A DNA stretch of 6,610 nucleotides from a virus (Duplodnaviria > Heunggongvirae > Uroviricota > Caudoviricetes): IMG/VR virus record IMGVR_UViG_2706794697_000006; one strand, written 5' to 3'. This document shows, one piece after another, positions 419 to 6,610 of the stretch. The position numbers and the translations under genes are program-made. The notes beneath the pieces were generated by a model that was given only the letters and a program-made list of their open reading frames with translations, made no database searches and had not been told where the DNA came from. Position 1 is the first letter of the stretch. Every line of letters starts with the position of its first letter.

Positions 419-544
419 CCGCGATTATCCCATATACCTACTCGCTGATTGCCCCTCCGCACAGGGGGATTCACCATGCCAGTTTCTTTTAACAAACTCC
501 CCGCAAAACAGACAACTGTCAACCGTCTGAATTGTGAGACATTT

Positions 545-570
545 AAAAAAAAGGCCCGCAAAAGCGAGCC
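545..570 (-). terminator. Rho-independent terminator immediately downstream of tRNA-Arg
   Basis: Minus strand: GGCUCGC-UUUU-GCGGGCC hairpin (plus 553-570; 7-bp stem with one G-U pair) followed by eight U (plus-strand A-run 545-552). Confidence 0.7.
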
Positions 571-584
571 AGGGAAAATAAGTG

Positions 585-661
585 TGGCGCGTTGTACTGG
601 ATTCGAACCAGTGACCGATTGCTTAGAAGGCAATTGCTCTGTCCGGCTGAGCTAACAACGC
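585..661 (-). tRNA. tRNA-Arg, anticodon UCU (reads AGA); phage-borne rare-codon tRNA
   Basis: Minus strand folds as a 77-nt cloverleaf: acceptor GCGTTGT/ACAACGC, D-stem GCTC/GAGC, anticodon stem ATTGC/GCAAT with loop CTTCTAA (anticodon TCT), variable loop CGGTC, T-arm ACTGG-TTCGAAT-CCAGT, discriminator G, encoded CCA. Confidence 0.9.
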
Positions 662-674
662 ATGATGCAGATAA

Positions 675-715
675 TGGACCGCCATCGGGGACTTGAACCC
701 CGCGCAGCCAGCTTC
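675..715 (-). tRNA. Partial tRNA, 3' portion only; 5' half including the anticodon lies in the N-run
   Basis: Minus strand shows T-arm CGGGG-TTCAAGT-CCCCG, then 7-nt acceptor strand ATGGCGG, discriminator T and CCA ending at 675. Identity cannot be determined. The implied 5' acceptor strand (CCGCCAT) is unusual, so this is tentative. Confidence 0.45.
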
Positions 716-925
716 NNNNNNNNNNNNNNNNNNNNNNNNNNNNNNNNNNNNNNNNNNNNNNNNNNNNNNNNNNNNNNNNNNNNNNNNNNNNNNNNNNNNN
801 NNNNNNNNNNNNNNNNNNNNNNNNNNNNNNNNNNNNNNNNNNNNNNNNNNNNNNNNNNNNNNNNNNNNNNNNNNNNNNNNNNNNNNNNNNNNNNNNNNNN
901 NNNNNNNNNNNNNNNNNNNNNNNNN
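716..925. other. Run of 210 N (assembly gap or masked sequence)
   Basis: Directly visible in the sequence. It hides the 3' end of the methyltransferase gene and the 5' part of the adjacent tRNA. Confidence 1.
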
Positions 926-1898
926 GCCCGAGCGCCAGTGCCGCTTTCACTGTCGAACCCAACCCCATGAAAAAATCTGCAATCAGGTCACCCGGACGAC
1001 TGCTAGCGCTGATTATCTGCTGCAGCATTTCTGCCGGTTTTTCGCACGGATGTTTCCCGGGATAGAACTGCACCGGTTTATGCGTCCACACATCGGTATA
1101 CGGCACCTGCACCGTCACGCCAAAATACCGCCGCAGATGTTTATATTCACTCAGCAGCTCCGCATACTGCCGGTTCAGTGAGGTATACGTATCCACCAGC
1201 TGGTGGTGGAGCTTTTCCAGTTCACCACGCCGATGCTTCTCTTCTGCCACCCGGGCAAACAGCGCCTGTAATTTCAGATAATCGCTTTCATTCGGCAACT
1301 GCCACTGACCGGCACTGAACCAGTGCGACACCATGTTTTTCTTTCCTGTGGCATCTGCAATCTGTTTTGCCGTTATCCCCAGGGCAGCTCGCGCATCACG
1401 AAAGTAAGAAATCAGCGGGGCCATCACATGCTGTTTCAGTGCACTGCCCTTCGCCGCATACCCGGCATCTTTCGGACGATACGGCCCCTGATAATGTTCC
1501 GCGAACAGAATGCGCTCTGTGGCGGGGAAATACGCCCGCAGGCTTTCCTTGTTGCATCCGTTCCAGCGTCCGGACGGCTTCGCCCAGATAATATGGTTCA
1601 GCACACTGAAGCGTTCACGCATCATGATTTCGATATCAGATGCCAGGCGATGACCACAGAACAGGTAAAGACTTCCGGCAGGTTTCAGCACCCGCCAGAA
1701 CTGCGCCAGACACTGGTCCAGCCACTTCAGGTAATCATCGTCGCCCTTCCACTGGTTATCCCAGCCCTCAGGCTTCACTTTAAAGTACGGCGGGTCCGTG
1801 ACTATCAGGTCAACAGAATTTTCGGGTAACGACCGGATAAATTCCAGGCAGTCGGCGTTGATTAACTCACAACTGGATATTTTTACAGTATTAAGCAT
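926..1898 (-). CDS. DNA methyltransferase (N6-adenine/N4-cytosine, DPPY class), orphan; C-terminus lost in the N-run
   Basis: ATG at 1898. The translation contains IVTDPPY (catalytic motif IV) near the N-terminus and HPCEKP plus DFFMGLGST (AdoMet-binding-type motifs) later. The ORF-track extension through the N-run and over the tRNAs (543-925) is an artifact. No obvious Shine-Dalgarno precedes the ATG. Confidence 0.85.
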
Positions 1899-3669: not shown

Positions 3670-4728
3670 TTATGCTTTCCACTTCAGAACACCCGAATTT
3701 CTCGCGTGCATTAAAAAACGAATCAGCAACAACAGCTGACTGCCGTGTTTCTCTTCAAAATCTTTTACTCCGGCATGTAGTTCGTTACGGCATTTACGGC
3801 ATAACGGAATAACAAACAAATCATCAGCCTTTGTTCCCATCCCTCCCAGTCCATGACCAATGATGTGATGCGGATCATCTGCCTGATTGCCACACGTCAT
3901 GCATTTCTGCGTTTTTACCCAGCGCGTGTATACAGGCATCTCTTCCCGTTGTGATTTCTGGCGCTGGAGATACTGAGCCGGTGACTCCGGATCAACGGCA
4001 ATGCTGACCACCGTCTTTTCCTGTGGTGGGTTCTGTTGCTGGTGGACGTGAGGCAGTAACGCAATATTTTTTGTGCGCTGCTTCAGTATGCTGGTGGCTG
4101 TCTGCTCTCCCGGTATGATGTCGCTTTCACTGTACACAGAGCGAATTTTTTCCGCACGCAACCCCAGCGAACGACGTAATACCGCTTCCGGTAGCGCGTC
4201 CGCCACCTGATTGCGGACCGCCCACCAGGATAATTCAGCCAGAGATAATTCACGCTCCTGCGTACCGCTTATTGCGTGACCGATGACGTCAATCATCCAT
4301 GCTGACAGGTTTTGATGAGCAAGTTGCTCGAGTGATTCGGATGTCTGGTCACGCAGCTGGTTGTCGCAGTGCCAGCACAACACCATTGCGCCGGTACCAT
4401 AACGGTGAATGACGGTTTCGCTGTGATGATAATCGCCGTGTGGCCACTGGCAGGATTTAATATGGCGCAACAGCCAGTCAGACAATGCACCAGCACCACC
4501 AGCAGCACGAATCACCCGTGCGTTACTGAAAAACGGCAGCAATGTTTTGTCTTCCACCAGCGGCTGGCGAGCGGCAGGAACGACCCCGGACGGCAGATTA
4601 CGCATGCTTTTTGGTTCCGGCTCCACCAGTATTCTGCCGTTATGGAATGCTGACATTGATTCACGGCCTGGCTTAACGATAACCAGACCGAGTTCCGGTA
4701 CCAGAACAGGTCGAAGTAATACCCGCAC
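3670..4728 (-). CDS. DUF968-like (YdfU-like) prophage protein with C-terminal HNH/zinc-finger-like motif
   Basis: 352 aa from a GTG at 4728 that has GGAGG 4 nt upstream; an alternative ATG at 4656 would give 328 aa. C-terminal motif CMTCGNQADDPHHIIGHG...CRKCRNELH. Size and position (upstream of rusA and Q) match ydfU of Qin-like prophages. Its stop abuts the rusA start. Confidence 0.7.
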   Translation of the reverse strand: MRVLLRPVLVPELGLVIVKPGRESMSAFHNGRILVEPEPKSMRNLPSGVVPAARQPLVEDKTLLPFFSNARVIRAAGGAGALSDWLLRHIKSCQWPHGDYHHSETVIHRYGTGAMVLCWHCDNQLRDQTSESLEQLAHQNLSAWMIDVIGHAISGTQERELSLAELSWWAVRNQVADALPEAVLRRSLGLRAEKIRSVYSESDIIPGEQTATSILKQRTKNIALLPHVHQQQNPPQEKTVVSIAVDPESPAQYLQRQKSQREEMPVYTRWVKTQKCMTCGNQADDPHHIIGHGLGGMGTKADDLFVIPLCRKCRNELHAGVKDFEEKHGSQLLLLIRFLMHARNSGVLKWKA

Positions 4729-4803
4729 ATTACCTCCAGATCCGTTGCTGGAATGTGCGGGACGGACGCGTTGGCCGTTCGGAGTAAGGGAGCCTGACGG
4801 AGA

Positions 4804-5085
4804 TTATCCAGTGACGGTAGTCGAGGCTAAGGGCTTTTTTAACCTCGCATCCGCGCCTGCGGTAACACTGAATGAGCCATTCGGCCTGTTCTTCAGTGCA
4901 TGGGGGATGCTGGTACCAATCAGATTTAAATGCGTGAGAGCGCCGCCCGTGCCTGCTGGCAAAGACGGCTGAATTATCAGAATTGTGTAGTCTGGAAGGC
5001 AGTGGCTGACAATAGCGCCATTCTCAACGCGCACAGTATAGAGGCCATCTTCACTAAAAATTTCACGTAATTCTTCGATTTTCAT
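4804..5085 (-). CDS. Hypothetical protein (93 aa) at the position occupied by rem in Qin-like prophages
   Basis: ATG at 5085 with GGAAGGA about 9 nt upstream. The ORF track starts it at a TTG one codon earlier. Position between hok and the DUF968 gene corresponds to rem; sequence identity to Rem was not verified. Confidence 0.5.
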   Translation of the reverse strand: MKIEELREIFSEDGLYTVRVENGAIVSHCLPDYTILIIQPSLPAGTGGALTHLNLIGTSIPHALKNRPNGSFSVTAGADARLKKPLASTTVTG

Positions 5086-5206
5086 CAACAGAATCCTTCC
5101 AGATAAATAGCACTCCCCTGTTCGGGGTCCATCCCTCTTCTCCCTGCGCGCTACTTAAGTATTTTTGATTCTATTCCGGCACCATCTAAAACTTCAAACG
5201 CGTTGA

Positions 5207-5236
5207 AAATAAAAACAAAAACCCGCCGAAGCGGGT
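5207..5236 (-). terminator. Rho-independent terminator at the 3' end of the hok mRNA
   Basis: Minus strand: ACCCGC-UUCG-GCGGGU hairpin (plus 5221-5236) followed by UUUUUGUUUUUAUUUU (plus-strand A-rich run 5207-5220). Confidence 0.8.
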
Positions 5237-5305
5237 TAAGTGTGGGTGCATTGAGGATGCCTGCCCCATCAGAGGTGGCGAGGGATTTCTCCCCCGCCTG
5301 GTCTC

Positions 5306-5461
5306 TTACTCCTCAGGTTCGTAAGCTGTGAAGACAGCGACCTCCGTCTGGCCGGTTCGAATTCGTACCTCGCAGAGGTCTTTCCTCGTTACCAGTGCCG
5401 TCACTATGACGGTTAAACAGATGACGATCAGGGCGATTAACATCGCCTTTTGCTGCTTCAT
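5306..5461 (-). CDS. hok: Hok-family type I toxin (51 aa membrane peptide)
   Basis: Translation MKQQKAMLIALIVICLTVIVTALVTRKDLCEVRIRTGQTEVAVFTAYEPEE, which matches HokD/RelF of E. coli as recalled. ATG at 5461 is preceded by GGAGAAGCAGGCT. Confidence 0.9.
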   Translation of the reverse strand: MKQQKAMLIALIVICLTVIVTALVTRKDLCEVRIRTGQTEVAVFTAYEPEE

Positions 5462-5518
5462 AGCCTGCTTCTCCTTGCCTTTCGGCACGTAAGAGGCTAA
5501 CCTAGATTTGCCGTTCAT
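5306..5518 (-). CDS. mok: mok-like reading frame (70 codons), in-frame N-terminal extension of hok
   Basis: ATG at 5518 in the hok frame adds MNGKSRLASYVPKGKEKQA upstream of Hok. The 70-codon length and arrangement match my recollection of mok loci. Confidence 0.55.
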   Translation of the reverse strand: MNGKSRLASYVPKGKEKQAMKQQKAMLIALIVICLTVIVTALVTRKDLCEVRIRTGQTEVAVFTAYEPEE

Positions 5519-5575
5519 AGATTGAGCCTCAGATTAATGTTAAGCGTCTTGCCGGACGCGTAATGTTAACTGGGG
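5510..5575 (+). ncRNA. sok: Candidate sok-like antisense RNA (position inferred, boundaries approximate)
   Basis: Plus strand opposite the mok start. Possible promoter TTGCCT (5475-5480), 17-nt spacer, TAACCT (5498-5503). Possible terminator hairpin GCGTC-TTGCCG-GACGC at 5544-5559 followed by a weak U-rich stretch. No clean terminator, so this is weak. Confidence 0.25.
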
Positions 5576-5612
5576 CTTTTCTCTATCTGCCTTTTGGTGT
5601 TCATGCCTGAGA

Positions 5613-5665
5613 CAGATAGCCTCAAGCACCCGCTGCAATTCTACTTAACTCTCCTTTTCCCGCAA
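5613..5665 (-). promoter_or_regulatory. hok promoter and mRNA 5' end carrying the fold-back partner of the 3' fbi element
   Basis: Minus strand TTGCGG (-35, plus 5660-5665), 16-nt spacer, TAGAAT (-10, plus 5638-5643). The predicted 5' end GCAGCGGGUGCUUGAGGCUAUCUG (plus 5613-5636) is complementary to the mRNA 3' region (plus 5241-5258) with one bulge, and resembles the GCUUGAGGC 5' motif of hok mRNA. Confidence 0.55.
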
Positions 5666-5672
5666 ACCGTTT

Positions 5673-5756
5673 TTATCCCCAGCGGCAAATCGAATACACC
5701 ACCAGCGCCACCGCCATCGCAATTCCTACCGTTGTTAATGCTTCAGGCCAGGTCAT
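5673..5756 (-). CDS. Candidate 27-aa hydrophobic peptide (ORF C), start overlapping the ORF B stop
   Basis: ATG at 5756-5754 overlaps the TGA of ORF B (ATGA). Translation [27 protein letters not shown] has a single predicted transmembrane-like stretch. It is below the ORF-track size cutoff. Only a weak GGA lies upstream. Confidence 0.3.
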
Positions 5757-6097
5757 CGTAAAATATCCTCCACGCTTATCAGTCCGTTCCGCTCCAGATA
5801 ACTCATCGCCTTATCCGGTAATTTGCAGTCTGGCTTCGCTTTCCTCAGTTGCCAGGTTAACTGCTTTACCAGCATGGTTAACTCATCGACCAGACGCTGA
5901 TATCCCACTGGTTTGTATTCATGCAATTTACCGGCTGGCTCTGCTGCCAGCGATACCAGTGCGATTTCCAGAACAGCAATATCCATCTTATATGTGCGGA
6001 TGATGTCATGGTCGATTGTGCCCGGTATGCACAGTCTCTGTGCTTCAATAGTCTCCTCTGCGTGAGCTATTAACTGCTCTCTGGTAAAAGTCGTCAT
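5753..6097 (-). CDS. Hypothetical protein (114 aa, ORF B), paralog of the upstream 55-aa ORF A
   Basis: ATG at 6097 overlaps the TGA of ORF A (ATGA). The N-terminus MTTFTREQ parallels MTTITKER of ORF A, and the internal [10 protein letters not shown]...EY parallels [10 protein letters not shown]...KY. Confidence 0.6.
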
Positions 6098-6261
6098 GCC
6101 GTAGCCCCTTCTTGATATTTTTCAAACCAGAACACAACCGGCTCTGCTTCCAGCGATGCCAGCGCAATCCGTGCCAGTTCCATTTGTTCACCACGGGTAA
6201 GCCCGTTTTCAAGCGGGTTTTTAATGAACAATTCAATACGTTCTTTGGTAATAGTGGTCAT
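6094..6261 (-). CDS. Hypothetical protein (55 aa, ORF A), first gene of a three-ORF coupled cassette
   Basis: ATG at 6261 with GGAG 7 nt upstream. Translation [55 protein letters not shown]. It is below the ORF-track cutoff. Its stop overlaps the ORF B start. Confidence 0.55.
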
Positions 6262-6271
6262 GTGTTACTCC

Positions 6272-6470
6272 TTAACCCGCAGTGCTTTCAACTGATGAGG
6301 GGAACAAAATCTTTTCATCAAACCCTGCATTCATATCATGAACAGCAACACACCAATCCATCGACGAACGATTATCAAGAGCCTCCATGATTTCATCCAT
6401 GCGGCGTAGGTCATACAGGTAAATGCTTTTATCGCCAATGGTGTAAAAGCCAATTTTTTTCGGTGATGGA
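6272..6470 (-). pseudogene. 3' fragment of an unidentified prophage gene truncated by the IS insertion (66 native codons)
   Basis: Open frame ending in TAA at 6272-6274 runs without a start codon up to the IS boundary at 6471. Native translation ...HPSPKKIGFYTIGDKSIYLYDLRRMDEIMEALDNRSSMDWCVAVHDMNAGFDEKILFPSSVESTAG. The frame continues into the IS to an ATG at 6502. Confidence 0.5.
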
Positions 6471-6610
6471 TGAGGTGTACTGGCAATAGCGGACACTACC
6501 ATTTGTTCTTTTTTTAAGCAGCCATCTGATGATATTTTTCCCTGAAGGCTGCCGGGGAGATATTCCCCAGACGAGAGTGACGACGCTGACGATTGTAGAA
6601 AATCTCAATG
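6471..6610 (-). mobile_element. IS3-family insertion sequence, right-end fragment (copy B, inverted); body lies right of the window
   Basis: Exact reverse complement of 1-140. The terminus faces into the window. Confidence 0.8.
6514..6609 (-). CDS. IS3-family transposase C-terminal fragment (copy B); 5' end outside window
   Basis: Mirror image of the 2-97 fragment, with the same translation ...EIFYNRQRRHSRLGNISPAAFREKYHQMAA. Confidence 0.75.
   Translation of the reverse strand: MEIFYNRQRRHSRLGNISPAAFREKYHQMAA

Follow-up and report, generated by a model that had tools for sequence, protein, structure and literature searches.

The DNA considered here is a 6,610-nucleotide (nt) stretch (the window) of the IMG/VR virus record IMGVR_UViG_2706794697_000006, which carries on its minus strand a cassette of three small open reading frames (ORFs) next to a hok gene. 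ORF A (6094..6261) encodes 55 amino acids (aa) and is chimeric, ORF B (5753..6097) encodes 114 aa, and ORF C (5673..5756) encodes a hydrophobic peptide of 27 aa. The three are joined by two 4-nt ATGA stop/start overlaps, at 6094-6097 between A and B and at 5753-5756 between B and C, and each start is preceded by a Shine-Dalgarno-like purine run (AAGGAG for A, GAAGGGG for B, and GGAGGA for C). An earlier interpretation made without database searches, referred to below as the sequence-only reading, had described three ORFs translationally linked through two ATGA overlaps, and the ORF listing reproduces these coordinates exactly. ORF A starts 10 nt past the stop of the preceding gene, inside a long string of co-oriented genes, and a simple consensus search of the minus strand upstream of A listed no promoter-like site.

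The window holds 6.3 kb of a Qin/Rac-like lambdoid prophage, with IS600 at both ends. The minus-strand order is a truncated phrog_1714 gene, A, B, C, hok/mok/sok, a rem-like ORF, DUF968 (YdfU-like), RusA, and the Q antiterminator, followed by a small ORF, a DNA methylase, a masked run of N, a tRNA-Arg, and the small RNA (sRNA) STnc100. The segment from A to Q (A-B-C-hok-rem-like-DUF968-RusA-Q) parallels relB-relE-hokD-rem-ydfU-ydfT of the Qin prophage of Escherichia coli K-12, which agrees with the proposal of the sequence-only reading that the cassette sits in the relBE slot of Qin, upstream of hokD. An intact E. coli prophage (L001) has the A-B pair far down a co-oriented gene string that begins at cro (cI-cro-YdaT-replication genes-DUF977-several ead/Ea22-like and hypothetical genes...A-B-hokD...DUF968-RusA-Q); ead/Ea22-like is the annotation given to genes neighboring A-B in related prophages. 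A 1011-bp stretch that includes the cassette (5500-6510) is present over at least 80% of its length in 241 of 5426 complete E. coli genomes.

Mosaic composition of ORFs A and B

ORF B matches phrog_660 with an E value of 8.2e-43; the match falls into two parts, one at the N-terminal and one at the C-terminal end of the 193-position profile. Members of this family are built from a variable helical head that ends in IALxSLxAEP, an optional variable middle domain, and a conserved 45-residue C-module that contains ELTMLVKQL and holds 18 of the 19 invariant columns in an alignment of 28 diverse sequences. In the alignment, B consists of a head or N-module (residues 1-54, 5936-6097), a short linker (residues 55-69), and the C-module (residues 70-114, 5756-5890), and is thus the minimal and shortest form of the architecture, without the middle domain. 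The head pattern MTTxTKE...IALxSLxAEP is found in A as well as in B. The match of A to phrog_660 (E=3.9e-10) covers the head only, and the conserved C-module is absent from A; likewise, A and B resemble each other over ~54 N-terminal residues only (BLASTP, 33% identity, E=1e-5). The profile searches that the sequence-only reading had suggested therefore place B and the head of A in phrog_660, and they gave no matches in Pfam, NCBIfam, or PADLOC. By these profile comparisons, A and B are copies of a known, uncharacterized mosaic phage family. The exact sequence of B occurs on more than 1000 contigs, as does that of A.

The two parts of A have different sources. Its head module (residues 1-42, 6136-6261) is an Eaa-type N-terminal helical hairpin, nearly identical to the N terminus of the Salmonella "Eaa" protein P0090 (197 aa; 87% identity across the length of A). 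Its tail (residues 41-55 and the stop codon, 6094-6141) is the 3'-terminal part of a gene for an HNH endonuclease. In phage ArgO145, B and C lie in DNA that is 99.6% identical to window positions 5672-6138, where the megablast match ends, and the gene that overlaps the start of B in that phage is a 121-aa HNH endonuclease whose last 15 residues are identical to the last 15 of A. The two parts of A join at a shared CCNGTTG. A PHROG scan of A gave the same division, with residues 1-54 matching the N termini of phrog_3323/60/660 and residues 31-54 matching the C-terminal end of the HNH endonuclease family phrog_2118. On these matches, A is a recombination product in which an Eaa-type head continues in frame into the final ~14 codons of an HNH endonuclease gene, and it is probably a by-product of that recombination. 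Because its tail is the 3' end of the HNH gene, the ATGA overlap between A and B is inherited from the HNH-B junction of other phages. The gene upstream of B in 85 B-carrying loci is the 55-aa A in 56, the 121-aa HNH endonuclease in 26, and a 61-aa ORF in 3, the last being a different head fused to the same HNH-derived tail as in A. The three-ORF arrangement noted earlier is therefore not conserved in its A-B pairing, while the overlap at the start of C is kept in every homolog found.

The sequence-only reading took A and B for paralogs, with B a duplicated and extended copy of A. The common N terminus holds, but B is not a local duplication of A, since the two heads match different groups of proteins. 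The head of B is 96-100% identical to the heads of the DUF551 proteins P0064 and P0066, in which it is fused to DUF551, whereas P0090 begins with the head of A and ends with the C-module of B; these Eaa and DUF551 proteins are longer and have middle domains that A and B lack. Since the head of A matches Eaa proteins and that of B matches DUF551 proteins, the two heads are best described as alleles of a shuffled module, with A and B related through the head only. The segments that code for IALxSLxAEP in B (5936-5965) and in A (6139-6168) form a direct repeat on the minus strand with 23 of 30 bases identical. The natural recombinant P0031, which has a head identical to that of A and the tail of B, has its crossover inside this repeat. 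P0001 and P0002 are natural A-B frameshift fusions, and P0011 is a natural B-C frameshift fusion that arose from an indel. A variation of another kind is seen downstream of C-modules of the ...NGLVSAEGVLR type (L096, L204, L087, and others), where the ATGA overlap leads to another gene, with the start MTISTKKPLYAEVHNVPDDYEFTDEELNRIIAG; in this subfamily of B-like genes the overlap is retained and the downstream partner is swapped.

AlphaFold 2 (AF2) models of both proteins contain predicted head helices with a predicted local distance difference test score (pLDDT) of around 85-94. The model of A has confident helices at residues 6-14 and 23-38 and a disordered tail (residues 44-55, pLDDT below 50). 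The model of B is all-helical (pLDDT 77.5), with head helices at residues 6-23 and 30-51, and its C-module appears coiled-coil-like. A sequence-based search for relatives of solved structure returned noise and designed coiled coils and nothing else. Structure prediction, also suggested by the sequence-only reading, thus yielded helical heads in A and B, with no toxin fold and no functional match.

A relative of B in K-12 is YfdT of the CPS-53 prophage, likewise a phrog_660 protein (E=1.3e-30), whose head (MTTFT...EIALVSLxxEP) is homologous to that of B (41% identity over 54 aa, E=8e-6). The location of yfdT also resembles that of B, as it closes a string of early prophage genes beside xis/int. 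YfdT lacks, however, the conserved C-module of B and has a middle and C-terminal part of its own. The one phenotype known for YfdT is that, in multicopy, yfdQ-yfdR together with yfdS or yfdT inhibit replication initiation (PMC4776307). The YfdT phenotype requires YfdQ and YfdR, and both are absent from the window. Ea22 of phage lambda offers a second comparison, as a mosaic early-operon accessory protein with a short N-terminal segment, a coiled coil, and a swappable C-terminal domain. Ea22 forms tetramers and favors lysogeny, and DUF551 is present in some of its variants in Shiga toxin (Stx) phages (PMC10834534). Homology of A or B to lambda Ea22 was considered and rejected (BLASTP E=1.3 for A and 0.45 for B; no Pfam match), so that the likeness is organizational only.

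ORF C and its junctions

A tblastn search with ORF C retrieved homologs of 63-78% identity in 91 phage records. Three records were examined: Stx phage 933W, where C lies after L0139 and before hokW (58829-58912 of AF125520); Stx phage BP-4795 (MNWPEAFTAVGVAIAVAFILYSLFRWG), where it follows a DUF551 gene near xis/int; and Av-05 of the Vequintavirinae (MTWPEAFTTVGVVMAVAFAVYSVCRWG), where it follows an Eaa-like gene. In all three, C has 27 codons, starts on the preceding stop codon, and is unannotated. The end of the preceding gene forms the start of C in every homolog found, and B-type C-modules that have diverged by a few residues are followed by the same 27-codon ORF with the ATGA overlap.

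What surrounds C is far more variable. Among 90 unique complete proteins encoded upstream of C, 51 have the head module and 40 the C-module, while a DUF551-type C-terminal motif occurs in 29. The 19 proteins that lack all three include the L0139/phrog_1621 family and a 209-aa family. Genes for DUF551 proteins ending in ...PEPPQEVNQ* are frequent upstream partners. This survey indicates that C follows genes of at least four unrelated families. On the other side, at least five unrelated sequences begin directly after the stop of C (the hok promoter, two terminator-like hairpins, and two others), which shows that homology between phages ends at that stop. The hok gene adjoins C in 85 of 115 loci.

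Selection on C was assessed with 238 copies, obtained from a degenerate-pattern scan of IMG/VR, with a pattern that fixed the first 11 codons, and from the loci gathered in this analysis. The ORF has exactly 27 codons in 227 of the 238, and the remaining copies include diverged forms of 22-29 codons with the same layout. It is intact in 53 of 64 unique nucleotide sequences. Over codons 12-26, which lie outside the search pattern, the ratio of nonsynonymous to synonymous differences (pN/pS) is 0.37 in the frame of C, compared with 0.88 and 2.37 in the other frames; between the window and Av-05, pS is 0.60 and pN is 0.10. Nine residues are invariant (M1, W3, E5, A6, G11, A15, Y21, S22, and W26). 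Taken together, the sequence comparisons indicate that ORF C is a real, autonomous, and largely unannotated gene under purifying selection across diverged phages, and the element of the cassette with the strongest conservation. The suspicion, voiced in the sequence-only reading, that C could be a chance frame does not survive the constancy of its length and the purifying selection in its frame.

ORF C is predicted to encode a single-pass membrane mini-protein. Its core (residues 6-24) has a mean Kyte-Doolittle hydropathy of 2.16 and provides one span of about 19 residues. The ends carry Trp3 and Trp26, with E5 on the N-terminal and R25 on the C-terminal side, and G11xxxA15 forms a small-xxx-small motif. 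The terminal Trp residues, this motif, and the C-terminal Arg point to a helix with N-out/C-in orientation, packed against a second helix. C falls in the same size class as small membrane proteins such as KdpF, AcrZ, and MgtS and type I toxins such as Hok, TisB, and DinQ, and shares with them the single hydrophobic helix, the interfacial aromatic residues, and the small-xxx-small motif. No significant homology to any of these was found; its only family matches, to KdpF (E=0.12) and to the DUF883_C glycine zipper (E=0.029), are weak, and neither is significant. Unlike these proteins, C lacks both a promoter and an antisense regulator of its own, is phage-borne, and is always coupled to the upstream stop.

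The gene has left few traces in annotation. C has no family in PHROG, Pfam, or NCBIfam, its entries in protein databases are sporadic and labeled "hypothetical" or "prophage protein," and in one RefSeq genome inspected it was left uncalled by the NCBI pipeline. A concatenated query of two C variants retrieved small hypothetical proteins and variants that had lost the stop or shifted frame, and nothing else. In phage vB_EcoS-689R5, C is frameshifted and the annotators called the shifted frame of 36 aa. No paper was found for the C peptide strings, which are also absent from the supplements of a ribosome profiling (Ribo-seq) study of small genes in enterohemorrhagic E. coli (EHEC) Sakai, and the literature on small membrane proteins and translational coupling held nothing relevant to C. 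An apparent clustering of C with DUF551 proteins, as if fused to them, proved to be an artefact, as DUF551 proteins do not contain C. Programmed frameshifting from B into C was likewise discarded on inspection, since there is no slippery heptamer and the sequence upstream of the C AUG varies with context.

The range of C looks narrow. A scan of species-representative genomes with a strict C motif gave true matches in E. coli and Shigella flexneri only, besides two chance matches and one probable contaminant contig. A 431-nt contig labeled "Xanthomonas pisi" (L394, NZ_JPLE01000323.1) holds a 933W-type C followed by the hok promoter region; almost certainly, that assembly is contaminated with E. 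coli Stx-phage DNA. In K-12, yfdT is not followed by ORF C and has TAATAG in place of the ATGA junction; the sequence after yfdT in CPS-53 (L271, 10150-10190) reads GAGGTGAAATAATAGAGCC where BP-4795 has the junction GAGGTGAAATGATGAATTGGCC. By this alignment, K-12 appears to have lost ORF C at a position homologous to the BP-4795 junction.

Competing readings of the cassette

The sequence-only reading had proposed that the cassette may be an alternative toxin-antitoxin or other accessory module. Its position, in the Qin relBE slot within a prophage gene string, bears out the latter. A type II toxin-antitoxin system would make A a labile antitoxin that neutralizes a toxin B, on the model of relB-relE, which occupy the same slot upstream of hok and rem-ydfU-Q and, like A-B, are two small genes with overlapping stop and start. 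The translational coupling of two small genes next to hokD fits such a system, as does the helical head common to A and B, through which they could heterodimerize. However, relBE is a bona fide autoregulated toxin-antitoxin system and has no homology to A-B, and scans of A, B, and C against Pfam, NCBIfam, and PADLOC gave no significant toxin, antitoxin, or defense match. No DNA-binding antitoxin domain (helix-turn-helix [HTH], ribbon-helix-helix [RHH], AbrB, or Phd/YefM) was found in A, nor a toxin fold in A or B. The pairing that such a system needs is broken in the 26 of 85 loci that have the HNH endonuclease instead of A before B, and A itself is a chimeric fragment with a foreign, disordered tail. 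Natural deletion recombinants that join the A head to the B tail and A-B frameshift fusions also speak against it, as does the place of the genes inside a long operon, with nothing promoter-like upstream of A in the simple consensus scan. We therefore abandon the toxin-antitoxin proposal for A and B as very improbable. Another possibility is that the toxin is C, a type I-like membrane toxin comparable to Hok, TisB, or DinQ that is limited by the product of the preceding gene or by the coupling itself, so that B and C would form a toxin/immunity or host-killing pair. A single hydrophobic helix of 27 aa has the size and composition of a type I toxin, hok is often adjacent (in the 85 of 115 loci given above), and a minority of prophage copies are frameshifted, as a harmful gene might be. 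Over C, however, there is no antisense RNA, long structured leader, or Rfam match; the Rfam sok/hok-leader match begins at 5631, downstream of the C stop at 5673. Translation of C is coupled, not silenced, no match to Hok_Gef or to another toxin family was obtained, and upstream partners from at least four unrelated families argue against a conserved and specific protein neutralizer. C is also present in a Vequintavirinae phage, where post-segregational killing would make no sense, the known members of that subfamily being virulent. We consider this explanation improbable.

Equally improbable for the cassette as a whole is that it represents decaying prophage debris, with A, and perhaps B and C, nonfunctional leftovers of recombination in a cryptic fragment bounded by insertion sequences (IS). 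A is visibly a recombination scar, the 6.3-kb fragment lies between inverted IS600 ends with its upstream gene truncated, and frameshifted C variants and A-B fusion variants exist. Decay would not, however, be expected to preserve 18 invariant columns in the C-module of B across 28 diverse relatives, or purifying selection on C and its retention in the functional phages 933W, BP-4795, ArgO145, and Av-05, and the presence of the exact A and B sequences on more than 1000 contigs each also stands against it. Applied to A alone, this explanation is plausible, with a probability somewhat short of even; it is plausible as well for the IS-truncated copy in the window, but not for the B and C families.

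We think it probable that the region forms the distal part of a string of accessory genes in a Qin/Rac-like lambdoid prophage, built from interchangeable modules and not a toxin-antitoxin system, in which A is a recombinant, B a minimal phrog_660 protein, and C an autonomous gene. The string corresponds to the ea/nin genes and runs from the replication genes to Q. On this accessory-string interpretation, the cassette would be transcribed within an early polycistronic phage mRNA, and ribosomes that terminate at each UGA would start again on the AUG that overlaps it. By analogy with the organization of Ea22, homo- or hetero-oligomerization may be mediated by the A and B heads. C would attach to the 3' end of its upstream neighbor, whichever gene that is, and insert in the inner membrane in an N-out/C-in orientation, where Trp3/Trp26 and the invariant G11xxxA15/Y21-S22 face could pack with C itself or with a host membrane protein during phage development. 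C would thus act in phage development rather than in prophage addiction. For the copy in the window, IS600, with its transposase 3' end pointing into the cassette, would have removed the native upstream promoter, so that only read-through from IS600 could express it.

Several points weigh against this interpretation. The predicted template modeling score (pTM) of the B model is only 0.41, and structure comparison gave no functional match. The expression, localization, oligomerization, and membrane-partner roles ascribed to the products of A, B, and C are deductions from sequence only. Most copies of C are closely related, and its length conservation therefore partly reflects shared ancestry, in addition to the constraint set by the 11 codons of the search pattern. 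Frameshift or nonsense changes occur in ~8% of the B-linked C copies surveyed (7 of 83 loci), from which it follows that C is dispensable in prophages. Head-only ORFs like A, of which two head types and three upstream contexts were seen, could moreover be selected products and not scars.

A further proposal, which we hold tentatively and think somewhat unlikely, is that C is the first member of a family of phage mini-proteins not described before. Proteins of this family, 22-29 aa long with M[T/N]WPEAF, a single transmembrane helix, and a short basic end, would spread by stop/start overlap onto unrelated early genes of lambdoid and Stx phages and of a Vequintavirinae phage and act on a specific host inner-membrane target during infection, for example, in host takeover or phage exclusion; A could also modulate head-bearing proteins such as B by hetero-oligomerization. 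Small membrane proteins often regulate larger membrane machines, which makes C a concrete candidate for a phage-host interaction factor. The analysis removes a false toxin-antitoxin lead and recasts an apparent paralog pair as the outcome of shuffled modules in the ea/nin accessory regions of lambdoid phages, which are poorly understood. It also points to a conserved 27-codon gene that was missed in the reference records of the medically important Stx phages 933W and BP-4795. The mosaic joints (CCNGTTG in A, the IALxSLxAEP crossover, and the boundary at the C stop) are a clean example of how short-homology recombination rebuilds accessory genes.

The hok boundary and other features of the window

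The hok/mok/sok type I toxin-antitoxin locus (5306..5631, minus strand) lies directly downstream of C and outside the cassette. It comprises mok (5306-5518), hok (5306-5461; Pfam HOK_GEF, 3e-23), and the hok leader/sok region (5456-5631; Rfam sok/hok-leader model, 112 bits). A putative hok promoter (5641..5668, minus strand; TTGCGG, 16 nt, TAGAAT) was read from the sequence, is absent from the list of the simple promoter scan, and would lie 5 nt past the C stop, with no terminator between C and hok. In K-12 Qin (L397, 7120-7634), the end of relE is only 72 nt before hokD, from which it follows that the mok/sok leader, complete in the window, is absent there; relBE and A-B-C adjoin hok at different boundaries. 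A weak Rfam match to IsrK, an sRNA of the Gifsy-1 prophage, was observed at 5216-5297 on the minus strand (25.8 bits; gathering threshold, 50), at the 3' end of the hok mRNA and its terminator (5220-5237), just upstream of the rem-like ORF. This match could be due to chance or reflect a distant relative of the IsrK/anti-Q regulatory region.

The IS600 (IS3 family) sequences are 140-nt 3' ends at 1-140 and 6471-6610, perfectly inverted and both pointing inward, which gives the 6.3-kb prophage fragment between them a composite-transposon-like structure. The phrog_1714 gene that adjoins A upstream (6272..6470, minus strand) is 5'-truncated by the IS600 end at 6471-6610 and encodes 87 aa when intact; the cassette is split in this way from the remainder of the early operon of the prophage. 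Toward the other end, a masked run of N at 716-925 breaks the 3' end of the DNA methylase region, and the 451-aa ORF listed across it (543..1898) is an artefact. A tRNA-Arg(TCT) gene at 585-661 is adjoined by STnc100 at 319-508 on the minus strand (Rfam, 123.6 bits, E=1.3e-27), and a second, weak STnc100 match at 92-280, on the same strand, is below the Rfam threshold. L001 has a gene pair for an HTH protein and an ImmA/IrrE metallopeptidase between hokD and the rem-like gene (4724-5562), which the window does not have. The rem-like ORF of the window (4804-5088, minus strand, 94 aa) matches K-12 Rem over its first ~45 residues (56% identity, E=8e-15) and then diverges, at what is a further mosaic joint.

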